Of a stretch of DNA of 64,000 nt, positions 13,054 through 64,000 are shown piece after piece. Where the stretch lies: NCBI RefSeq assembly GCF_001677475.2, contig NZ_CP015229.1. The stretch is one strand, 5' to 3'. The DNA comes from Escherichia coli. Its GTDB lineage: Bacteria > Pseudomonadota > Gammaproteobacteria > Enterobacterales > Enterobacteriaceae. The notes beneath the pieces are model-generated. The model had not been told where the DNA came from. It ran no database searches and saw only the letters and a list, made by a program, of their open reading frames with translations. The number at the start of each line of letters is the position of its first letter. Within the stretch, counting starts at the first letter, position 1. The position numbers and the translations under genes were made by a program.

Positions 13054-13997
13054 TTAGCCTCCGGTAGAGGTCGTCCCGCAATTTGTGATTGTATCTGCGC
13101 AGCCATCAGCCCCAGAGATGCAAAGGAGTTAGAAATCGCCTCTTCACGAGAAATCAGCACATAGCGCCCGGAACGACAGGCCGTCAGAAACTGACACCAT
13201 CCCGGCATGACTTTTTCCATTGCTGCCAGCTCATCCTGAGGTTTACCACCGGTGTCACCGCGCCAGGTTGCAAAAACAAAATCGGCATCCAGTTCAGGTA
13301 AACGCTCTGCGCTCACATCCATTCGCCCACCTTCAGGAATGCTCTCAATCAGCGGCGGAAAGCGAAAACCAGCATCGCGTAATACCCGCCCCAGCGAATG
13401 ATAGCTATGCATCACATTAATTTTTCCCTGATTTGCCTGAATCACCGATACCGTTATTTTTTGGCTGTCCAGCGTCGCCTTCAGCGCATTGATTTGTGCC
13501 TGATAGCGGCGTTCAAGTATCGCCAGCTGCGACTGCGTTCCTGTAAGTTCTGCCAGCTTGCGGTAGATTTCTGGCGCGCCTCCTTTGAGATGATCAATGC
13601 TCACCGTGGGCGCAATTTTTTCCAGTTGTTCAATGGGCGTATTACGGGTCGGTTCTGTGATGATCAGGTCAGGCTTTGCCGCCACAATCGCTTCAATATC
13701 AATATCAGCGGTGCCAATAAAAGCGATCGATGAATTATCAAAGTCGACACCTGTCAATAACGCGCCTGATCGAATGAAATGGCTACCGTCAGGCCGGGTT
13801 CGCCCGTGGCTGGCGACAGGAGGTACACCGAGCTCAATCAGAGGAATAGTGATATCAAGATCGTGTAAAGAGACAATTCTCTTTGGATGAGCAGGAACAG
13901 TGACTTTGCGCCCTAAATCATCAGTAAAGACCTGAACAGGTTCTGTCGCGCGGGCAAAGAATGACAACAGTATCAGCAGAGAAAAAAATAAACGCAT
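13050..13997 (-). CDS. Periplasmic substrate-binding protein, siderophore/cobalamin type (FecB-like)
   Basis: ORF 13050-14060; probable start at Met preceding signal peptide MRLFFSLLILLSFFARA. Confidence 0.7.
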   Translation of the reverse strand: MRLFFSLLILLSFFARATEPVQVFTDDLGRKVTVPAHPKRIVSLHDLDITIPLIELGVPPVASHGRTRPDGSHFIRSGALLTGVDFDNSSIAFIGTADIDIEAIVAAKPDLIITEPTRNTPIEQLEKIAPTVSIDHLKGGAPEIYRKLAELTGTQSQLAILERRYQAQINALKATLDSQKITVSVIQANQGKINVMHSYHSLGRVLRDAGFRFPPLIESIPEGGRMDVSAERLPELDADFVFATWRGDTGGKPQDELAAMEKVMPGWCQFLTACRSGRYVLISREEAISNSFASLGLMAAQIQSQIAGRPLPEAK

Positions 13998-14007
13998 ATA
14001 ACTCCCA

Positions 14008-15057
14008 TTAAAAACTGTTCCTGCGCTGCCAGAGCAGTAGCAAAAAGAATGGTCCACCAATCAATGAAATAATGATTCCGGCAGGCAGTTGCAAAGGCAA
14101 AAAAGCCAAACGACCAATGCTATCCGCCAGGATGACTAACAACGCCCCCGATACGGCGCTCCCCAGCAGTAATGTCGTCTGCCCGCCACGTAGAATAAAA
14201 CGTGATATATGGGGTGCTATCAATCCGACAAAACCGATGTTACCAACACACGAAACGCAGACGGCTGTCAGGATTATTGGTGCGGCGACACGTAACAACG
14301 CCAGACGAGAACTATTCACCCCTAACCCGGTTGCAACCTGATGACCAAGCAGAGCGATATCCGCCGTCCTGGCGGTGAACAGCAATAAAAGAGCGGCTGG
14401 CAACATCCAACAGGCTGAAATACCGACTAACATCCAGTTAGCTGCATGCAGGCTTCCCGATAACCACATCAATGCAGTTTGTACATCTCGAACATCTGCA
14501 GTGGTCATAAATACACCGATACCGGCGGCGAAAAACCAGGAAACACCAATACCAATCAGAACAAATCGCGGGCGGGAAATATCGCGTGCACAAAAAATCA
14601 CGATTAAAGCCACCAACAAGCCACCAGCAAGACCAGCCACTGGACGCCAGAACATTCCCAGCATTGGAAACTGGAAGATCAGCCACAGCACCGCCACGCT
14701 ACATCCTTCTTTGACGCCGATTAAACCAGGATCGGCAAGGCCGTTACGCGCAATGGATTGCATCGCGGCCCCCGCCATACCTAACATGGCTCCGCATAGC
14801 AATGCCATGATGACTCTCGGCAAGCGAATATCCTGCACAATATAACGTGCGTCTGTGCTTACGTTTTCTGGAGCAAACAACGCTCGTCCTACTTCCGATG
14901 CCGGGACAGAAAAAGAACCATGCATCAGACCGAATATCAGTATTCCAACCGCAAACAGAAACAGCCCACCAAGCAACACCAGATTTTTAGGGCGTACCAG
15001 TGTCGAAAACTTACCAACACGTAGTGGACGTAGCCCGACGTTCATTATCCGACTCAT
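14008..15057 (-). CDS. ABC transporter permease, FecCD family
   Basis: 349 aa polytopic membrane protein. Confidence 0.75.
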   Translation of the reverse strand: MSRIMNVGLRPLRVGKFSTLVRPKNLVLLGGLFLFAVGILIFGLMHGSFSVPASEVGRALFAPENVSTDARYIVQDIRLPRVIMALLCGAMLGMAGAAMQSIARNGLADPGLIGVKEGCSVAVLWLIFQFPMLGMFWRPVAGLAGGLLVALIVIFCARDISRPRFVLIGIGVSWFFAAGIGVFMTTADVRDVQTALMWLSGSLHAANWMLVGISACWMLPAALLLLFTARTADIALLGHQVATGLGVNSSRLALLRVAAPIILTAVCVSCVGNIGFVGLIAPHISRFILRGGQTTLLLGSAVSGALLVILADSIGRLAFLPLQLPAGIIISLIGGPFFLLLLWQRRNSF

Positions 15058-54475: not shown

Positions 54476-54551
54476 GGCCCCTTAGCTCAGTGGTTAGAGC
54501 AGGCGACTCATAATCGCTTGGTCGCTGGTTCAAGTCCAGCAGGGGCCACCA
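54476..54551 (+). tRNA. ileX: tRNA-Ile2 (anticodon CAU, lysidine-modified), ileX-type
   Basis: 76-nt cloverleaf GGCCCCTTAGCTCAGTGGTTAGAGCAGGCGACTCATAATCGC...GGGGCCACCA with CAT anticodon and encoded CCA; differs from both Met tRNAs. Confidence 0.85.
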
Positions 54552-54765
54552 GATTTCAATGAATTACAGATGTATCCAAACTATCTTGCTTTACCAGGAT
54601 ACTTATAGGATACCTCTGAGAAGTATTAACAAGTAAGAATTGGCTCATGCCTACAGAACAGTTGGGTCGTAGCAGCCGTTCACCTGCGAACAAGAAAGTG
54701 CTACGGGTCTGAACTTTTGCCCCCAACTCTCCAAGAGACCGGCAAAAACCCTGACGGAGGTATCA

Positions 54766-54909
54766 ATGGATACTTTAAGAAAGGGCTCAGACCTGCTGTC
54801 TGCACGTGTGATTGCCGTTACAGGTTTAATCGCAGCACTTGGCAATTTAGGTCTATGCCCAATAGCCGTAGTGCTAGTATGTATAGCTTTAGTTATCATG
54901 CTGAAGTAA
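54766..54909 (+). CDS. Candidate 47-aa small membrane peptide (MDTLRKGSDLLSARVIAVTGLIAALGNLGLCPIAVVLVCIALVIMLK)
   Basis: ATG preceded by GGAGG at correct spacing; followed by GGCCCAGCtttcGCTGGGCC hairpin; rare codons (TTA, AGA, CTA, ATA); below the ORF-track size cutoff. Confidence 0.35.
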   Translation: MDTLRKGSDLLSARVIAVTGLIAALGNLGLCPIAVVLVCIALVIMLK

Positions 54910-55652
54910 TGACAGCGTAACAAGCTCGGCCCAGCTTTCGCTGGGCCTCCCATTTCTACCTCCCAAAATCTATTAGAAACAATAAGCCACTAAAGAAAGA
55001 GCTTTTGCTGGCTACAATACTCACATACAAACAATTTTTATTTTTCGCGGGCGTAAAAAAACGATGGGGCTGGCAGTCCGGAAGACGTCAGGGTACAGAG
55101 ATTTGTACCCGCCTCTCCCTGTGCATGAGCACAATAAGTAACCGAAGGCGGAATTCCGCCCTCGGTACTCACATATGAGAAACGATATTTCTTCCACCGA
55201 TACCCTTTATTTGGGTATCGCGAGTAAGCCCCAAAATCTGGGTGTTACTCTTACTACCCAAACTACGGGTAGTTTCCGTAGTTTCATGGTCGAGTTGCAG
55301 ATCTGCAACTCACCCACCAGCCAACGCAATTTTGCGTTATCGGGAATATCAGCAAGTTACCGCCGCAGTCGTTCCGGCTTCTTCCACTGGTAAGTATTTT
55401 TCGCGCTCTCCCTCCGTTGTTGAGAACGGCGACGGTATGCCAGCAACTCAAGGACTCTGATCCGTATGTCGCGCATATCCACGCCGTTAAGCTCGATACC
55501 GTCACGGCGCATCATCTCTGCCACCACACGCGCGTAATTTTCGGCTATCACGCTGTCCGGCTGCGTGGCCTCCTATTTGCTTGATGGTTGTTTGATTCCG
55601 GTAACGCGGCGGATTAATCCCAGCAATTCAGATTCTGTCATAGTGCGCTACG

Positions 55653-55992
55653 TTACTTGTCTTTATTCGGCTGCAACTTATCCGGCACATTTCCGGTAGT
55701 TTCCATCAGGTAATCAGCCAGTATCTGTGGGAGGTTGTCGGCAACTCTGGCACTGGCATTACAGGCTTTAACCACTTCCCTTTTAAGCCCATCCAGCATA
55801 GCGGGGGTAATGTGTGGGAAGCTCCTTTGCATAGTAAGCGGGAGGCTGTCCATGATTGATGAAATCTGACTCGCCAGTTTTGAAAGCGCGTACATGCAAA
55901 ACTCTGTATCAATCACGTCACCGCGATCGCGCTCGTTTTTAAGTTCCTGCGCCTCCGCCTGTGCTGTCAGTAATCTGATCCTGACTCGTAAG
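55653..55992 (-). pseudogene. Nu1-like small terminase subunit, C-terminal fragment (gene split by IS insertion)
   Basis: Translation ...LLTAQAEAQELKNERDRGDVIDTEFCMYALSKLASQISSIMDSLPLTMQRSF... resembles the lambda Nu1 C-terminal half; frame is open up to the IS boundary. Confidence 0.7.
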
Positions 55993-56085
55993 TATGAGAC
56001 GACAATAACTCAGTCCGCCTGGCGCCGATTATTCTGGCCGGTTTTGTAACCTGAGTGTCATTTACATGATCCAACAGGAAATGGC

Positions 56086-57465
56086 GTGACGCTCAATACT
56101 TCTCAGGTCAGTTACTATATGACTCAGCGTAAGAAAGGTATAACTCAGCATATCTCGGCCATGAAGGCTGGTATCTCAGTCCGTTCTGGTCGTCGGATCG
56201 AAAAAGGAGAGTGGGCAAAAAACAGTGTTCGGCACTGGCGCACACGCAAAGATCCTCTGGAAGCTGTGTGGGACAGCATGCTTGTTCCTCTGTTGAAAGA
56301 GAGGCCGGCTCTGACACCAACAACTCTACTGGAGATGCTACAGGATAAATATCCCGGCCAGTACCCCAACAGCCTTCGAAGAACAATGCAACGGCGGGTT
56401 CGCGAATGGAAACTACAGTATGGTACAGAGCAGGAGGTCATGTTCCGCCAGCAACATCAGCCCGGCCTGCGAGGCCTGTCGGACTTTACTGAACTGAAAG
56501 GTGTAGTTGTCACCATCGCCGGTAAGTTGTTGGCGCATAAGTTGTATCACTTCCGTCTGGAATGGAGCCACTGGAGCTGGATGCGGGTTGTTCTGGGTGG
56601 TGAGAGCTTCTCTGCTCTGGCTGAAGGCCTGCAGGAAGCCCTCGGACAACTGGGCGGAGTGCCGGTAGAACATAAAACGGACAGCCTGAGGGCAGCATGG
56701 AAACAACAGGGCGAAGATGGACGCCGCGAGCTGACTGAGCGTTATGCTACTCTCTGTCAGCACTACGGAATGCAGGGCGTACACAATAATGCCGGTCGGG
56801 GCCACGAAAATGGCTCGGTTGAAAGTGCCCACGGACATCTGAAAAGGCGTATCTGTCAGGCGCTGATACTGCGGGGCAGTAACGACTTCAGCACCATAGA
56901 AGAATATCAGGCCTTCATCACTCAGCAGGTTATGCGGCACAACCGTAACAATCAGGATCTGGTCAAGGAAGAACGTCTTCATCTGAAACCGCTGCCGCTT
57001 CGTCGCAGTGCTGACTATGATGAGCTGACTGTGAGGGTTAGTCGCAGCAGTACCATCAATGTGAAGCACGTCGTCTACAGCGTACCTTCCCGGCTTGTAG
57101 GTCAACTGTTACGGGTCAGGTTATGGGACGATCGTCTGAGCTGTTACGTTGGCAGCAGCGAGGTCATGAGCTGCCCTCGCGTCAGACCAGAAAAAGGGAA
57201 GACGCGGGCCCGTCGTATCGACTTCCGACATGTGATCGACAGTCTGGCAAAAAAGCCCGGTGCGTTCTGCCATGCAACGCTGAGAAATGACATCCTGCCG
57301 GACGATGAATGGCGGAGGCTGTGGCGTCGCTTATGTAATCATCTGGAGCCCGATATGGCAGGAAGGCTGATGGTACATGCCGGGAAACGTGGATCTGCAC
57401 CGGCTGATGCGCTTCCTGGGTATAAAAGAAAAGGCGTTGCCGGTAGTCAATGTGATACAGCATAA
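56086..57465 (+). CDS. istA: IS21-family transposase IstA
   Basis: 459-aa ORF (GTG 56086; ATG at 56119 also possible); N-terminal HTH-like region and DDE-type catalytic core typical of IstA. Confidence 0.8.
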   Translation: MTLNTSQVSYYMTQRKKGITQHISAMKAGISVRSGRRIEKGEWAKNSVRHWRTRKDPLEAVWDSMLVPLLKERPALTPTTLLEMLQDKYPGQYPNSLRRTMQRRVREWKLQYGTEQEVMFRQQHQPGLRGLSDFTELKGVVVTIAGKLLAHKLYHFRLEWSHWSWMRVVLGGESFSALAEGLQEALGQLGGVPVEHKTDSLRAAWKQQGEDGRRELTERYATLCQHYGMQGVHNNAGRGHENGSVESAHGHLKRRICQALILRGSNDFSTIEEYQAFITQQVMRHNRNNQDLVKEERLHLKPLPLRRSADYDELTVRVSRSSTINVKHVVYSVPSRLVGQLLRVRLWDDRLSCYVGSSEVMSCPRVRPEKGKTRARRIDFRHVIDSLAKKPGAFCHATLRNDILPDDEWRRLWRRLCNHLEPDMAGRLMVHAGKRGSAPADALPGYKRKGVAGSQCDTA

Positions 57466-57510
57466 CCTGAGCAGTTATGAGCAACTACTGCGTGGCAAGG
57501 GAGGTTCGCA

Positions 57511-58266
57511 GTGAGCAATATCCATCACCTTGAACATAGCCTGCGTAAACTACGCCTGACACGAGTTGGAGCTGAATGGCACGCTCTGGAAAAACGAGCG
57601 CTGGCAGAAGGCTGGACACCATCGCGCTATCTTCTGACGCTATGCAATGAAGAACTCCTGTGGCGCGAGAGTGAAAAACTGCGTCGTTATAAAAAGGAGG
57701 CCCGGTTGCCAGTTGCCAAAACGCTGAGCGAATACGACTTCAGTCAGGTGCCGGAACTGAATGGAGCTCAGTTCCGGCAACTCTGTGAAACGACAGACTG
57801 GGTTGATGCAGGAGAAAACGTTCTGCTGTTCGGAGCCAGCGGGTTGGGGAAAAGCCATCTGGCGGCAGCGATCGTGGATGGCGTAGTAGGTCAGGGCTAC
57901 CGGGCCCGGTTCTACAGCGCAGGAGAGCTGTTGCAGGAACTACGTAAAGCCAGAGCTCAGTTGAAACTGAATGAGCTGCTACTGAAACTGGATCGCTACC
58001 GGGTGATAGTGGTGGATGATCTTGGCTATGTCAAACGCGATAGTGCCGAAACGGGTGTGCTGTTCGAGTTAATAGCGCATCGCTATGAACGTGGGAGCCT
58101 GGTGATAACCAGTAACCATCCGTTCAGCATGTGGGGCAGCATCTTCGTGGATGAGACTATGGCGGTGGCTGCGGCAGACAGGCTGATCCATCACGGATAT
58201 ATGTTCGAACTGAAAGGGGAAAGCTACAGGAAAAAGACAGCGAAGGCAGTAACAAGCGCGACTTGA
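57511..58266 (+). CDS. istB: IS21-family helper ATPase IstB
   Basis: 251 aa; Walker A FGASGLGKSHLA and Walker B VIVVDDLGY; GTG start with GGAGG RBS. Confidence 0.85.
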   Translation: MSNIHHLEHSLRKLRLTRVGAEWHALEKRALAEGWTPSRYLLTLCNEELLWRESEKLRRYKKEARLPVAKTLSEYDFSQVPELNGAQFRQLCETTDWVDAGENVLLFGASGLGKSHLAAAIVDGVVGQGYRARFYSAGELLQELRKARAQLKLNELLLKLDRYRVIVVDDLGYVKRDSAETGVLFELIAHRYERGSLVITSNHPFSMWGSIFVDETMAVAAADRLIHHGYMFELKGESYRKKTAKAVTSAT

Positions 58267-58331
58267 TGTCGCCCTGAAGGGTGCGGCCAGTATAGTTGGC
58301 GCGAGTCGGCAAAACTAGTTGACGTCTAATA

Positions 58332-58544
58332 TCGTAAGAGTTCATCATCATCAATCTCGCCTTTGTCGTTTGTAAGCTGGCTAATTGCATTGTTAACCCT
58401 ATTGTCTATCACGCTGGCAACATCATAAAACGCCTCACGGCCTTTACGTTCAACGGGAGTCACTCCCCACTTGTCGAATGCTGTAGCACTTACCCGGCAG
58501 CTTTGCGCCATGGTTTTTTTGTTCATCAGGTGCGATTTCATCAA
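58332..58544 (-). pseudogene. Nu1-like small terminase subunit, N-terminal fragment (gene split by IS insertion)
   Basis: MNKKTMAQSCRVSATAFDKWGVTPVERKGREAFYDVASVI... resembles lambda Nu1 N-terminal winged-helix region; frame runs into the IS and stops two codons inside it. Confidence 0.7.
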
Positions 58545-58639
58545 TATCCCAACTTGGTCAAGGTTTCAGGTTGGTGTGTTGGTGTTATCTTTCCCTTTTT
58601 ATTCATGGAGATAGAGCAAACAACAAAACCACCACCACC

Positions 58640-58725
58640 CCCCTGAAAAAGCTCATAAATAGCGAAAAACCGCGAGGTCGCCGCCCCGTAACGGGTCCAT
58701 ATGCCGGAAAGGACCCGTAAAAAAA
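58640..58725 (-). other. Lambda-type cos site (cosQ-cosN-cosB); cosN 12-nt cohesive-end sequence at 58675-58686
   Basis: Reverse strand reads ACGGGTCCTTTCCGGCATATGGACCCGTTACG-GGGCGGCGACCT-CGCGGTTTTTCGCTATTTATGAGC, near-identical to the lambda cos region as recalled; lies immediately upstream of the Nu1-like gene as in lambda. Confidence 0.7.
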
Positions 58726-58747: not shown

Positions 58748-59161
58748 TCAGATGGTTTTCAGTATGCGATCGATGTCGCCATCATCGCCCGGGTTTCTGC
58801 CAGCGTATGCCATACCAGCTGATACGGCTTTCGGGCTGTGCATGTCCATAAAGTTTTCAAAGGCTGCGGTAAGCTCTGGTGCAACCTTCTGGCGTTCCTG
58901 CTCTATGGTCATGCTAAGGATGCTTTTAGCCGTACCAACATCGATACAAGGCACGTTTGCCATTGCACGTAACAGCGGCTGATAGTCGCCAGATTCATCA
59001 AGCGCCATAATCGCATCAGAGCGCGGCTTGTCCTTCTCTTCCAGGCTGTTAAGTTGATATACGGCCTCGTAGGTTGATAAACCTCTGTCAGCCATTGCCC
59101 GCGCTTCGGCCTTAAATTTACTCGCCAGCGGTAGCGTCATGATGCTTTCATTCGTTGCCAT
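58748..59161 (-). CDS. Hypothetical 137-aa protein, last gene of the capsid operon
   Basis: Tightly packed 12 nt downstream of the D-like gene; no family recognised. Confidence 0.5.
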   Translation of the reverse strand: MATNESIMTLPLASKFKAEARAMADRGLSTYEAVYQLNSLEEKDKPRSDAIMALDESGDYQPLLRAMANVPCIDVGTAKSILSMTIEQERQKVAPELTAAFENFMDMHSPKAVSAGMAYAGRNPGDDGDIDRILKTI

Positions 59162-59173
59162 CGTTCCCTCTGC

Positions 59174-59509
59174 TTATCGGGCCAGTGGCTGAACGGATAC
59201 GCCAGAACCCGCAAAGGCGGCGCATTTTTTCGCATCGGTGTCGACGCTCTCAGGCCAGTTAACGGCGGCGATATTAAATATCCCCGTCTTATAGCACTGT
59301 GCTGATTTCTGCGTCGACGTGTCAACGGGGTACGAGGTCAGATAAACAGCCTTGCCAGATTCCTGACCATCCCACGGCTTAAACTCGCCATTTTCCGCCA
59401 GCATCAGCGGGGTAAATTCCTGAATAACTCCAGCATCAGCGGCAAAATGTACCAGCGTCGTGGATACCTGCTGACTGCCTGCAAATAACTCAATGTATGG
59501 AGTGTTCAT
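59174..59509 (-). CDS. Head decoration protein, lambda gpD-like
   Basis: 111 aa; shared blocks with lambda D as recalled (TPLML, WDG, YKxGxF, WPE, KKxAAFAG); size matches (lambda D 110 aa). Confidence 0.7.
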   Translation of the reverse strand: MNTPYIELFAGSQQVSTTLVHFAADAGVIQEFTPLMLAENGEFKPWDGQESGKAVYLTSYPVDTSTQKSAQCYKTGIFNIAAVNWPESVDTDAKKCAAFAGSGVSVQPLAR

Positions 59510-59520
59510 AGAATCCCCCG

Positions 59521-60576
59521 TTAAGCAATTTTGACGGTAACAAATTTGCGAATATCTGCCGGTACCGGCTGCGGTGCGCTGTGCGTCTGCACGTACTCAA
59601 TCGCCGGATCGCCATCCTCAATCCAGTTTTTCGGGTAGTACATGTTTTGCGTTGCGCCAGTTCTTACCGCTTCCGGATCCATAATCGCACCATAGGCCAC
59701 CAGCCCTTTATTGTTAGTGTTGCCCAGGACAAGCAAATCAGGCTCAAGGAAATATTTTTCGGTGCCATCGCTGTCGGTGTATTTGCCGGAATAGACGATA
59801 AGGGCCAGATCACCCAGATAGCCTTTAAAGCTCACCACTTCGCCCAGGTTTTTACAGGCCAGCTCTGCGGCGGATTCTGAACCACGGGAAAGATCGTACA
59901 GTTCACGGAATTTTTTAAAGCTGCGTAACGTGCGCCATACCTCAGCGCCCATAATCATGACGTTGGCGGGGCAACCAGCCTGATCGGTGTATAGTTCGAT
60001 GTCATAGATTGGATCGTGTGTTTCCTTATCTGCCTCAGACCACTTTTTGCCCGATCCCTGCGTAATGATGTTTTTAGTCGGGATTTTCCAGTCGATTTCG
60101 TATCTATTTATTCCTTCGCCCTCAATGATGTTTTTTCCGGTCGTGACCGCATTCACCGCCAGCCATTCTATGCGAGCTTTAATAGCGTTTACCTGGCGGC
60201 GCATGTTGCCAGTAATCAGGCGCATACGGCGATAAGTTGGATCGTTAAGCTGTGCCGGATCTTCTCCAGCCATGCGCATGATGGTTTTTGATGGATCGAT
60301 TTCGTGTTTTGGTTTCATATAGCCAGGGCGGATAGTGCTTGTTTCGTACCCTTTATCGCGCTGAACCTGACTCCCCACCATAGGCGAACAAAAAGCCGAC
60401 ATGGTGACTTCTTCAATATCCAGGGTATCTAACATGATGTCCTGCGTGTTGAAGGTTGCCACGTTCGGGAAAAACAGCGACGTAAACAGCGGACTGAATT
60501 TAAATTCCGAAATATCCCCACGATTCAGGTACGCGAAAAGCTGGTTAGTGTTAAGTGCCGTTGCTTTGCCTGTCAT
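59521..60576 (-). CDS. Major capsid protein, lambda gpE-like
   Basis: 351 aa; blocks FKFSPLFTSLFF and PGYMKPKHEIDP, YPKNWIEDGDPA, SAPQP match lambda E motifs (FKFDPLFLRLFF, PGYVKPKHEVNP, YPKNWVTTGDPA, SAPLM) as recalled; similar length. Confidence 0.85.
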   Translation of the reverse strand: MTGKATALNTNQLFAYLNRGDISEFKFSPLFTSLFFPNVATFNTQDIMLDTLDIEEVTMSAFCSPMVGSQVQRDKGYETSTIRPGYMKPKHEIDPSKTIMRMAGEDPAQLNDPTYRRMRLITGNMRRQVNAIKARIEWLAVNAVTTGKNIIEGEGINRYEIDWKIPTKNIITQGSGKKWSEADKETHDPIYDIELYTDQAGCPANVMIMGAEVWRTLRSFKKFRELYDLSRGSESAAELACKNLGEVVSFKGYLGDLALIVYSGKYTDSDGTEKYFLEPDLLVLGNTNNKGLVAYGAIMDPEAVRTGATQNMYYPKNWIEDGDPAIEYVQTHSAPQPVPADIRKFVTVKIA

Positions 60577-61033: not shown

Positions 61034-61456
61034 TTAAAACGGTATGTTATCCCCGTACGGATCATCGTTACCCGCCTGTTGTTTTGCCCTGTTCAGTGCG
61101 TCAGTAGCCTGCCCTTGCTGGCCTTTTTTGCCGCCCGGTCGCGCCGTTCTCGCACTGATTACGCTGTCTGCGATAACCTGCCAGCCCTGCCGCGTTTCGC
61201 CGTTCTGGCCTGTCCACTGGCTTACCTGCATGTTACCCGCCACGCTCACCAGTTCGCCTTTGTGGTGTTTTGCCAGTGCGTCGGCCTGTCTGCCAAACGC
61301 CAGGACGGATAACCACATCGTCGCCGTTCCGTCATCTGCCTGGCTGCACGGAAGGGGGACCGCCATACTAGCCATCGTCATTTGTGTACCCTTGCTGGTG
61401 GTCTTTAACTGCGGGTCAGCCACCAGCCGCCCGTAAGCCGCTATCTGTGCTGTCAT
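61034..61456 (-). CDS. SSB-like single-stranded-DNA-binding protein (divergent OB fold with conserved acidic C-terminal tail)
   Basis: 140 aa; Gly/Gln-rich linker and C-terminus DDPYGDNIPF resembling the SSB tail (DFDDDIPF). Confidence 0.55.
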   Translation of the reverse strand: MTAQIAAYGRLVADPQLKTTSKGTQMTMASMAVPLPCSQADDGTATMWLSVLAFGRQADALAKHHKGELVSVAGNMQVSQWTGQNGETRQGWQVIADSVISARTARPGGKKGQQGQATDALNRAKQQAGNDDPYGDNIPF

Positions 61457-61985: not shown

Positions 61986-63818
61986 TTAATTTTTGCTATC
62001 GTCATTAGTGACTGATACACATGATGGCATCCAGTCTTCTGATTCCTCCGTCAGTGTCACGTTTGAACGTAAACCGTGCTTCGTTTTCCGTTTTATATAC
62101 TCCCTGCCATATTCCGCCATTGCCCCAGGCATATCTTTACCGAAGCGCGTCAGTGTTACAGGTTTACCAAACCCATGAGCCCTCATATAAGCCAGATAGG
62201 CATGATAGAGATACCTGCGCGGGCTGAATGGCACAATTTCAGCATTACCCACTAACAGGCCATCACACATTACCGACGCCATGAGATAGCCGCAGAAGTC
62301 CACCAGCGAATCCCCCTCTCGCTTTATCGCCAGTGCTTCTTCAGATTTCTGCTGCTCATATAACAGGCGTCTGGCTTCGTCCTGGTCAGCAAACCTTGTA
62401 AGCAGATGGCGAATCACTACCGCCAGCTCACCTTCTATTTTTTCCGCCAGCATCGGATCGCGTTCGTTCTCCGGTACAACTTCCGAAAAATTGAATATCA
62501 CCCGACGACGTGAGATCCCCCCGCTGCGGTCACTGAATGACATGGCGTTATTGTTAACCGCCAGCACTACTGCCGGAATACGCGTTGAGTAGGGGGCTTT
62601 GTGTTTCGGGTCAATTGCCACCTTGTCACCGCCTGTAATGGCCTTAATTCCTGCCCCATCACCAGCGTAGCGGGTCATATCCGGCATGATAATCAGCGAA
62701 AAGCCAACCACTAACGCGCGTTCCCTTGCATCTTCCAGCGCCTTCATGCTTGCCGATACTGTGTTGGCCTTACCCGCCAGCATGGTGCAAATCTCCGCCA
62801 TCACGCTTTTACCACTTCCCCCTGGACCTGTTACCTCAATGAATAACTGCCAGTCGTACCGGTTCGCCAGCACCATGAATAATGCAGCCAGTACGCGATC
62901 CGCCTTGCGGTCATTCTCAGCCACCGAACGGCGTAACCACTTCCAGAAATTCGGCGCATGTGTTGCCAGCGTTTCCCCCTCTGCTGGTGGGCTGAAAGGT
63001 AATTCACTGGCAATTAACAACCAGTCGTTTTTGTTATGCTCCCGAAAATTACCTGTTCTGGTATCAAATACCCCGTTACTGAATCCAATCAGGTTACGGG
63101 CTGTATTCCCCATTACAGGCAAACTTAACTTCATGGTATCGACCGCCGATTTAATGGCGTTCTGCGAATAGCTGATCTCCGCATCAATGAAAATCTGCGC
63201 CATAGCACGCTGTAACTCTTTATCCTGAACCGGCTCCCATACAACGCCGTTGTAATGGTGAACAGTGTCAGAGTCAGCATGAATCGCCAGTTCACCGCCA
63301 TAATGTGCCAGGAGAACTTCGCCGCGTTGACTTGCTCCCATCTGGTTAAGCGCCAGTGATGAAGCGTTATCGTCTTTTACCCGCTCTTTTTTCTTTACAG
63401 GCAGTTCAACTACCTTTTTCTTTTCCGCCAGCTCTGCCCGTTCACGTTCCAGATATTCGCGCCAGTTCTCCCGTTTCTGGCTGTGCATTCCTTCAGGATA
63501 ATAATCAGCATCCCTGACACCTGCCGCTGCCAGTTTCTGCCCGATGGTATTAACAAGCCCCGGACGCAATAACCCCGCCTGGTAGAGACGCACACGATAG
63601 CGTCCGTCCGGTACGATTTGCAGGTTGTCCAGTTCGGCAAGTTGTTGCTCTCCAAGCCAGACAGGAGGCACGTTATCGCCAGCCAGTCGCCCGTCCTGTT
63701 CCTGCCACTGCTTCGCATGTGCCCACGCATCACTACCCGCAAAAATGATGACTTCCGTCATTTTGTCACGTGGCTGGTGTTTTAAATTTGGCGCTTTTTT
63801 CATTTCTGCTCTCTCCAC
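61986..63818 (-). CDS. Replication initiator/helicase, SF3 (D5-like) family, P4 alpha-type
   Basis: 610 aa; Walker A GPGGSGKS in a D5/SF3-helicase-like core; sits next to the iteron array; start may be at a downstream Met. Confidence 0.75.
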   Translation of the reverse strand: MERAEMKKAPNLKHQPRDKMTEVIIFAGSDAWAHAKQWQEQDGRLAGDNVPPVWLGEQQLAELDNLQIVPDGRYRVRLYQAGLLRPGLVNTIGQKLAAAGVRDADYYPEGMHSQKRENWREYLERERAELAEKKKVVELPVKKKERVKDDNASSLALNQMGASQRGEVLLAHYGGELAIHADSDTVHHYNGVVWEPVQDKELQRAMAQIFIDAEISYSQNAIKSAVDTMKLSLPVMGNTARNLIGFSNGVFDTRTGNFREHNKNDWLLIASELPFSPPAEGETLATHAPNFWKWLRRSVAENDRKADRVLAALFMVLANRYDWQLFIEVTGPGGSGKSVMAEICTMLAGKANTVSASMKALEDARERALVVGFSLIIMPDMTRYAGDGAGIKAITGGDKVAIDPKHKAPYSTRIPAVVLAVNNNAMSFSDRSGGISRRRVIFNFSEVVPENERDPMLAEKIEGELAVVIRHLLTRFADQDEARRLLYEQQKSEEALAIKREGDSLVDFCGYLMASVMCDGLLVGNAEIVPFSPRRYLYHAYLAYMRAHGFGKPVTLTRFGKDMPGAMAEYGREYIKRKTKHGLRSNVTLTEESEDWMPSCVSVTNDDSKN

Positions 63819-64000
63819 GCGGCAATCATGTTTTTCAGTTCCTGTAGTTTTTTATCAACATCCATACATGACACATGGTTATTTCTGGAAGGCGGGATTT
63901 CCCGCCGGAATCTGCAAATAAAGATCTCCACGTTCAGCGAGCTATGAAATGAATAGCCATCACGAATAAAATACACACGGTCAAACATTATCGATTTTAC

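Follow-up and report, generated by a model that had tools for sequence, protein, structure and literature searches.

A defective ISEc10 copy splits the Nu1-type terS gene of a PICI at ileX in Escherichia coli, with probable loss of satellite-specific packaging

A phage satellite that keeps its packaging site intact while an insertion sequence (IS) divides the gene for its terminase small subunit (terS) raises the question of whether such an island can still leave its host. This arrangement is found towards the end of the window, a stretch of 64,000 nucleotides of E. coli DNA that was analysed as a whole. The explanation favoured here, at a probability of roughly 85%, is that ISEc10 transposed into the terS of a phage-inducible chromosomal island (PICI) residing at ileX and duplicated 7 bp of its target, that satellite-specific packaging was most probably lost as a result, and that further decay came later.

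The inserted element occupies positions 55993 to 58331 (+ strand, opposite to terS) and is assigned, by descent, to ISEc10 of the IS21 family, of which it is a defective copy. In comparison with a RefSeq-annotated ISEc10 copy of 2410 bp, on which the name rests rather than on the ISfinder reference entry, the 2339 aligned bp show three mismatches and lack one stretch of 71 bp. The genes istA and istB, for a DDE transposase and an AAA+ helper ATPase, lie consecutively, and both products score above the NCBIfam cut-offs: 226.7 bits against 160 for IstA (NF033546) and 266.7 bits against 200 for IstB (NF038214). The IS21-family assignment made by an earlier sequence-only reading of this DNA was thus borne out. 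By repeat search, the ends form imperfect terminal inverted repeats of 48 nt (55993–56040 and 58284–58331) that are 71% complementary. ISEc10 copies taken from seven other records, representing five independent insertion sites, have identical termini, all beginning with TATGAGACG and finishing with CGTCTAATA. Four of these copies are flanked by direct repeats of 5, 5, 6 and 7 bp, and the other three records share a common flank on each side, representing a single insertion site with no repeat. Since independent copies have the same ends and repeats of 5–7 bp, the termini in the window are correctly placed and a duplication of 7 bp lies within the range of this element.

Members of the IS21 family generate short direct target duplications of 4–8 bp. 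Here the heptamer TCGTAAG adjoins both termini of the element, at 55986–55992 and at 58332–58338. The word itself is not rare, as the window holds six copies where 5.96 are expected, and for chance alone to put the same 7-mer at both termini the probability is about 4^-7. The comparison with empty sites settles the matter: in two other genomes the intact alleles contain CTTACGA once, the same heptamer read on the terS strand, between flanks identical on both sides. The direct repeat is a true target duplication, as the earlier reading had proposed. That the junction is a product of faulty assembly, or that the repeat on its two sides is coincidental, is extremely unlikely. Such an explanation could appeal to IS copies being classic sites of misassembly and to the ordinary frequency of the heptamer; against it, both junctions are exact and the termini are those of other ISEc10 copies, the empty sites predict the duplication base for base, and the 71-bp deletion is private to this copy and could not be produced by a collapsed repeat.

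The junction between the IS and terS was absent from all 5426 complete E. coli genomes in the collection. Because the repeats are perfect and the gene is otherwise undamaged, and in view of this absence, the insertion, which is private, is probably recent, an age that had already been suggested from the letters of the sequence.

The gene that received the element is identified by homology as a full-length relative of the Nu1-type terminase small subunits. Its C-terminal part, with the Phage_Nu1 domain, spans 55653–55992 (− strand; codons 69–180 and the stop codon), the first two codons lying inside the duplicated heptamer. The N-terminal part, residues 1–70, spans 58332–58541 (− strand) and aligns with the portion of lambda Nu1 that holds the winged-helix DNA-binding domain. 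When the IS and one copy of the repeat are removed on paper, an open reading frame of 180 codons results, which reads ...GEIDDDELLRVRIRLLTAQAEAQELKNERD... across the join, exactly as had been written beforehand for a predicted product of about 180 aa. The restored protein matches Pfam Phage_Nu1 (PF07471, E = 9e-22) and the terminase small subunit family PHROG 57 (E = 7e-52), with 36% identity to lambda Nu1 (Nu1 residues 3–180 aligned) and 46% identity to N15 gp1 over residues 5–163. A PDB sequence search with the restored protein, in which Nu1 or Rpp structures were sought, returned nothing meaningful and no Rpp match at E <= 1, and NCBIfam holds no model for TerS. The search for an uninterrupted allele recommended by the sequence-only reading was successful: the gene is contiguous in 758 complete E. 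coli genomes, where it is annotated as terminase small subunit (best identity 97.8%), so the two fragments are indeed halves of one protein. Of the N-terminal fragment drawn earlier (58332–58544), the fragment itself stood but its start did not, as the ATG at 58541 is likelier than the TTG at 58544 according to the annotation of relatives. In the present state, the N-terminal fragment terminates in a tyrosine and a stop codon that are both supplied by the IS terminus, and the only in-frame start left to the C-terminal fragment is a GTG at 55916, which would give 87 aa.

The element itself has suffered damage, a defective state that was overlooked in the earlier reading. The 71 bp missing in comparison with full copies (IS positions 1388–1458) fall within istA (56086–57465, + strand), between 57379 and 57380. 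The product is of 459 aa instead of 499, with a frameshift after residue 431 that leaves the final 28 residues out of frame, and the overlap of istA with the start of istB is gone owing to the same deletion. On the other hand, istB (57511–58266, + strand) is intact, with 251 aa as in the annotated ISEc10 copies. The best-ranked ISEc10 copies in the 5426 complete E. coli genomes all lack this deletion. An autonomous copy has an intact transposase; here, because the deletion frameshifts istA, the element would be unable to move or excise by means of its own transposase.

The host element is classified, from its gene content, as a Gram-negative PICI of the TerS-encoding type integrated at tRNA-Ile (ileX). 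The tRNA gene, with a CAT anticodon, lies at 54476–54551 (+ strand) according to ARAGORN, Rfam and RefSeq relatives, in which it is annotated as ileX; the Rfam search returned this tRNA only. The island abuts the 3' end of ileX, whose 3' part is probably its attachment site, and at the same site in strain KC-Dl-1 an island of 10.68 kb is bordered by perfect 49-bp direct repeats of the 3' end of the tRNA; the second such repeat of the present island would fall outside the window. Beyond terS, on the − strand throughout, follow a gene for a 137-aa PICI protein (58748–59161; phrog_1999), a head decoration protein homologue (59174–59509; phrog_49, E = 2e-27, annotated as such in RefSeq relatives), a major capsid protein homologue (59521–60576; phrog_29 "major head protein", E = 5e-110), a single-stranded DNA-binding protein (61034–61456; phrog_44) and a PICI primase/replicase (61986–63818; phrog_864, E = 6e-192), the region of the last being 96% identical in DNA to the island of strain PM4-5. 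The 137-aa protein is weakly similar to the C-terminal part of head-maturation proteases, found no match in PDB or NCBIfam, and is possibly a Nu3-type scaffold.

The visible part of the island contains a primase-replicase, capsid-morphogenesis genes and terS, nothing further of any size being present from the tRNA to the primase gene, and genes for tail, lysis, portal and large terminase are absent from it. The island runs past base 64000, where the window ends; in relatives with the same modules, one end bears an integrase and a regulator of the AlpA type, and this end would here lie beyond that base. Their anatomy (int, HTH regulator, icd-like gene, primase, ssb, capsid, decoration, terS) agrees with the visible part of the present island. 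Two other classes were considered and rejected: a capsid-forming PICI (cfPICI), as no portal, protease, head-tail connector, large terminase or HNH gene is found in the stretch that runs from the tRNA to the primase gene, and a P4-like satellite, whose hallmark genes were not found in the visible part. A scan for promoters and terminators gave counts no better than those of shuffled sequences; one of its sites straddles the right end of the IS and was given no weight. In two genomes inspected, out of 24 with a related ileX island, no progenitor with an intact terS was found at ileX, and the packaging modules of both islands are different: that of KC-Dl-1 has an HTH gene, that of Iso00041 a DUF1441 gene with a protease-capsid fusion.

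Among the closest known systems is the PICI of strain IHE3034, also present in Nissle 1917, which is described as a TerS-encoding PICI (PMC6092414). Its gene order (primase, ssb, capsid, decoration, 137-aa gene, cos, terS, small gene) is that of the window, its terS is 95.1% identical and its cos region is conserved. The islands differ in their integration site, which is ileX in the window, tRNA-Pro in Nissle and tqsA in PM4-5, and the window island is set apart from the IHE3034 type by its interrupted terS and by a stop codon in the small gene downstream. This small PICI gene (phrog_1561; 55357–55640, − strand) encodes 93–94 aa in relatives, and comparison of its translation with three of them revealed a premature TAG at 55573–55575. 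The leftover ORF of 64 aa matches positions 30–93 of the 93 in the phrog_1561 profile; this nonsense codon was also overlooked in the earlier reading.

The cos region (58545–58720, − strand), delimited by comparison with the lambda ends and by conservation in intact islands, is present and unaltered in comparison with intact relatives, in agreement with the proposal that the insertion had spared it. It comprises cosQ (GGGTCCT, 58716–58710), a 12-nt cohesive-end sequence GGGCGGCGACCT at 58686–58675 that is identical to that of lambda and occurs once in the window, and a cosB of the island at about 58660–58545. While cosQ and cosN match those of lambda exactly or almost exactly, this cosB bears no resemblance to the lambda counterpart and holds an inverted repeat (58564–58576 and 58636–58648). 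The start codon of terS follows directly at 58541, the same layout of cos and then terS as in lambda and N15, to whose small subunits the restored protein is homologous over its whole length; the distance from cosN to the start codon is 145 nt, compared with 190 nt in lambda, and terS of the island, in a further difference, is not followed by a large terminase gene.

The lambda-like cosN and cosQ raise the alternative that the island is mobilised normally, with a helper's lambda-like terminase reading these conserved sites and the island's own TerS being redundant. It gains plausibility from the finding that lambda and phi80 still transfer plasmids with a PICI cos and a foreign cosB, yet this transfer occurs at reduced frequency (PMC6092414, PMC6739421) and became efficient only with the specificity factor of the island itself (PMC6739421). 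Conservation of the terS-cosB pair across hundreds of islands moreover argues for its importance, and the cosB found here is unlike that of lambda. Normal mobilisation is accordingly regarded as distinctly improbable. In the one study in which TerS-encoding PICIs of E. coli were tested, no helper was identified, and their transfer did not rise beyond background or close to it (PMC6092414, Table 1). That packaging of the island, if it occurs, depends on a helper Nu1, as the sequence-only reading had held, is a reasonable inference; since the TerS of a helper makes poor use of a related island's cos when the cosB is foreign to it (PMC6092414, PMC6739421), it is at least as likely that the island is mostly immobilised.

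Under the favoured explanation, that of a transposition which disabled the island's packaging, the following course of events may be proposed. In its intact form, TerS would use its N-terminal winged-helix domain to recognise the island's own cosB beside a lambda-type cosN, while the C-terminal two-thirds would serve for oligomerisation and for recruiting the large terminase of a helper phage, so that island DNA enters helper capsids. ISEc10 would then have transposed into codons 69–71 of terS, duplicating 7 bp of target and parting these two functions: from the native start only a DNA-binding stub of 71 residues would be made, the C-terminal part would have lost its promoter-proximal start, and transcription into the small gene downstream would be interrupted as well. 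As the two parts of terS are separated, the island keeps its cos and has most probably lost its satellite-specific packaging. With the specific recognition of cos probably gone, it would be unable to direct its own packaging, and at best an inefficient packaging by the helper's own TerS may proceed through the common cosN and cosQ. The 71-bp deletion in istA would belong to a later decay, and the nonsense codon downstream may precede or follow the insertion.

The stub could retain some activity, and it is here that an opposite explanation enters, in which the insertion is functional. The stub would occupy cosB or pair with the DNA-binding domain of a helper TerS, in an interference similar to that of Rpp, or the IS would act as a reversible switch reset by precise excision. 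The known case is EcCICFT073, which shares with the window island a lambda-like cosQ/cosN beside an island-specific cosB followed by a specificity gene, with capsid and decoration homologues upstream (PMC6739421, PMC9026076). EcCICFT073 lacks TerS and has instead a 144-aa Rpp that pairs with the helper TerS, whereas the window gene is a full-length Nu1 homologue including the C-terminal region, and no match between its sequence and the Rpp structures was detected. A functional insertion would fit with the alignment of the stub to the winged-helix part of lambda Nu1 behind a native upstream region that is kept, with the pairing of a similar domain in Rpp proteins with helper TerS (PMC6739421, PMC9026076), and with the exact restoration of the frame on loss of the IS and one repeat. 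Nevertheless, a junction seen in none of the 5426 genomes gives no sign of selection or spread, transposase-driven events would require another copy as istA is not intact, and IS elements are not known to leave a restored donor site when they transpose; the second lesion, in the downstream gene, fits decay, and no sequence similarity to the Rpp structures was detected at E <= 1. This explanation is regarded as distinctly improbable. Its more specific form, that the stub is expressed on induction and blocks cosB or forms mixed DNA-binding dimers with helper TerS as a minimal Rpp-like interference factor, is very improbable; if true, what was once a mobile satellite would now be a fixed anti-phage locus.

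The case is an ordinary gene knock-out by a common IS of E. coli and, overall, ordinary mobile-element decay. For annotation, the two terS fragments should be treated as one pseudogene and the IS copy as defective. The weight of the finding is modest, as a clean and datable example of the disabling of phage satellites inside their hosts, in which one IS hit takes out the packaging-specificity protein and spares cos as well as the capsid and replication genes. On paper the lesion can be reversed precisely, and for this reason the strain provides a natural pair of terS-null and repaired islands. With this pair it could be asked whether a TerS-encoding PICI of E. coli depends on a TerS of its own and which phages act as its helpers, the latter a question that the first description of these islands did not answer (PMC6092414).

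The small terminase gene (terS) of the phage-inducible chromosomal island (PICI) at tRNA-Ile (ileX) lies on the minus strand in two pieces separated by ISEc10. Its N-terminal ORF (ATG at 58541; there is also a TTG at 58544) runs for 70 codons before 58331-58326 supply a Tyr and a stop codon, and the C-terminal reading frame closes at 55653. With the IS and one repeat copy deleted in silico, the result was a 180-aa protein, as the sequence-only reading had predicted in proposing a restored frame and a product of about 180 aa. The restored TerS carries a Pfam Phage_Nu1 domain (residues 63-148, E = 9e-22), matches PHROG 57 (terminase small subunit) over its full length (E = 7e-52), and shows 36% identity to lambda Nu1 residues 3-180 and 46% to N15 gp1 over residues 5-163. 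Because both fragments lie within single homologue alignments, they are halves of one Nu1-like protein, again as proposed. The insertion point is residue 70 of TerS, and in the lambda Nu1 alignment it falls just past the N-terminal winged-helix region, ahead of the conserved C-terminal two-thirds. The winged-helix DNA-binding and other domain assignments for lambda Nu1 come from literature summarised in PMC9026076. The uninterrupted allele suggested for a search was found in 758 complete E. coli genomes, where the unbroken gene is annotated terminase small subunit (best identity 97.8%). No genome covered more than about half of a 200-bp left-junction probe, which makes the insertion unique in the genome collection.

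Imperfect 48-nt terminal inverted repeats of the IS (55993-56040 and 58284-58331) were located by a repeat search of the window, and the heptamer TCGTAAG touches both ends (55986-55992 and 58332-58338). Since this heptamer occurs six times in the window against 5.96 expected by chance, its presence alone is little proof of a duplication. The examined copies of ISEc10, drawn from seven other E. coli records, all share the start TATGAGACG and the end CGTCTAATA, which confirms that the IS ends are correctly placed. Direct repeats of 5, 5, 6 and 7 bp flank the element in four of these records, so a 7-bp duplication is normal for ISEc10; the remaining three have identical flanks, representing one further insertion site without a direct repeat. 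In the uninterrupted alleles of PM4-5 and Nissle 1917, CTTACGA is present as a single copy, and the 25 bases on each side match the window flanks exactly in PM4-5 and with one substitution in Nissle 1917. By sequence, these alleles represent the empty site and predict the TCGTAAG duplication base for base; together with the shared termini they bear out its assignment as the target duplication. A promoter-like site at 58319-58348 (plus strand), with its -35 TTGACG within the IS right end and its -10 in the terS fragment, would be directed antisense into the N-terminal fragment; promoter-like sites in the window overall were no more numerous than in shuffles.

The two genes between the terS fragments lie on the plus strand and encode 459 and 251 aa. 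IstA, the IS21-family transposase (226.7 bits against an NCBIfam cut-off of 160), and IstB, the helper ATPase (266.7 against 200), both exceed the curated thresholds and uphold the proposed istA/istB element, which megablast placed, annotated as ISEc10, in 898 of 5426 complete E. coli genomes. The window copy differs from a 2410-bp ISEc10 copy by three mismatches and, in that alignment, one 71-bp deletion in istA (IS positions 1388-1458, window 57379/57380). Past residue 431 the deletion shifts the istA frame, so that the product has 459 aa rather than 499. In intact copies the istA stop and the istB start overlap; here the deletion has moved them apart. A copy with the same deletion would be expected to match a probe spanning it in one piece and to rank first; as no single-piece match was present among the matches listed, the deletion appears private to this copy, which is presumably unable to transpose by itself.

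On the minus strand, 5' of the terS start, the window reads ACGGGTCCTTTCCGG...GTTACG GGGCGGCGACCT CGCGGTTTTTCGCTATTTATGA, for comparison with the lambda ends ACGGGTCCTTTCCGG...GTTACG and GGGCGGCGACCTCGCGGGTTTTCGCTATTTATGA. Within this cos (packaging) site, cosQ and the 12-nt cohesive end (58686-58675; a single occurrence in the window) are conserved with lambda, whereas the sequence past the cohesive end is unrelated to lambda cosB. Since the whole region is also nearly identical in the intact islands of Nissle 1917 and PM4-5, cos has been left intact, as the sequence-only reading held. A 13-nt inverted repeat inside the island-specific cosB (TTTCAGGTTGGTG / CACCCCCCTGAAA, 58564-58576 / 58636-58648), kept in intact islands, provides candidate TerS binding elements. 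In PM4-5 (locus L003, NZ_CP096834.1) the cos-terS segment is inverted relative to the window and Nissle 1917 and is bounded by a 77-nt inverted repeat (13829-13905 and 14692-14768) holding cosQ and cosN, giving that island two cos sites in opposite orientation; a different cosB with AAACGACAC / GTCGTTTC motifs follows the second. Two cos sites have been reported for the PICI EcCICFT073 (PMC6092414).

Adjoining terS on the minus strand, with cos on one side and the decoration gene on the other, is a 137-aa gene (58748-59161) assigned to phrog_1999. Its product weakly matches head-maturation protease profiles at their C-terminal end (phrog_53 positions 494-568 of 583, E = 1e-8), a region whose counterpart in lambda is the nested scaffold Nu3; the 137-aa protein may be a satellite-encoded scaffold. 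PHROG homologues of head decoration, major capsid ('major head protein' family), SSB and primase (610 aa) proteins are encoded nearby on the same strand. Relatives with the same modules are islands of 10-11 kb that add an integrase, a small HTH regulator, an icd-like gene and DUF4222, located inside tqsA (PM4-5), next to tRNA-Pro (Nissle 1917) and at ileX (KC-Dl-1, where 49 bp from the 3' end of the tRNA are repeated without mismatch at the island's boundaries). Judged by gene content, the window island and its relatives have the anatomy of Gram-negative PICIs, which comprises integrase, regulator, primase-replicase, capsid morphogenesis and small terminase (PMC6092414; bioRxiv 10.1101/2022.09.14.508007). 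The IHE3034 island, named as TerS-encoding (PMC6092414), has a terS allele 95.1% identical to the window gene. No portal, connector or large-terminase gene was found in the visible part of the window island, which ruled out a capsid-forming PICI. Packaging modules of these satellites are swapped as cassettes. The ileX islands of other strains have the integrase-primase half in common and differ in packaging modules: KC-Dl-1 (L005 15832-16215) has a 127-aa HTH protein replacing the 137-aa gene and no terS annotation, and Iso00041 (L014 13289-15945) has DUF1441 and a ClpP-protease/capsid fusion, plus a HEPN gene and IS903B. About 640 bp (54555-55190) separate the tRNA from the first recognisable island gene; this segment holds a single ORF of at least 100 aa (54651-54953, unassigned), gave no match in Rfam, and is restricted to the roughly 24 of 5426 E. 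coli genomes that have an island at ileX.

In EcCICFT073, an island-specific cosB adjoins a lambda-like cosN, and an island protein reads cosB and then brings the helper terminase (PMC6739421, PMC9026076). On the model of lambda and EcCICFT073, the TerS of the window island, when intact, would be expected to bind that island's cosB and to recruit a helper's large subunit. The insertion would reduce terS to a stub of 71 residues and an orphaned C-terminal part, for which GTG at 55916 is the only in-frame start codon left; transcription toward the small gene downstream would also be broken. Because plasmids with a PICI cos and a foreign cosB are transferred by lambda and phi80 at reduced frequency unless the island specificity factor is supplied (PMC6092414, PMC6739421), the island is expected to be mostly immobile, helper TerS driving weak packaging at best. 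This expectation does not conflict with the earlier proposal that any packaging would need helper Nu1.

Perfect repeats, an otherwise open terS frame, an IS almost identical to active copies and a junction absent elsewhere all point to a recent event, in support of the dating first suggested. The conserved gene downstream of terS (phrog_1561, 55357-55640, minus strand; 93-94 aa in three relatives) carries a TAG at 55573-55575 in place of a Gln found in relatives, leaving only a 64-aa ORF from GTG; this is a second inactivating lesion of the island. The sequence-only reading was right in its observation and in its main interpretation. What happened is an ordinary knock-out by an IS, and both the gene type and the element class were already known. 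The insertion, the TAG in the phrog_1561 gene and the 71-bp IS loss are in keeping with a satellite decaying neutrally within a single lineage.
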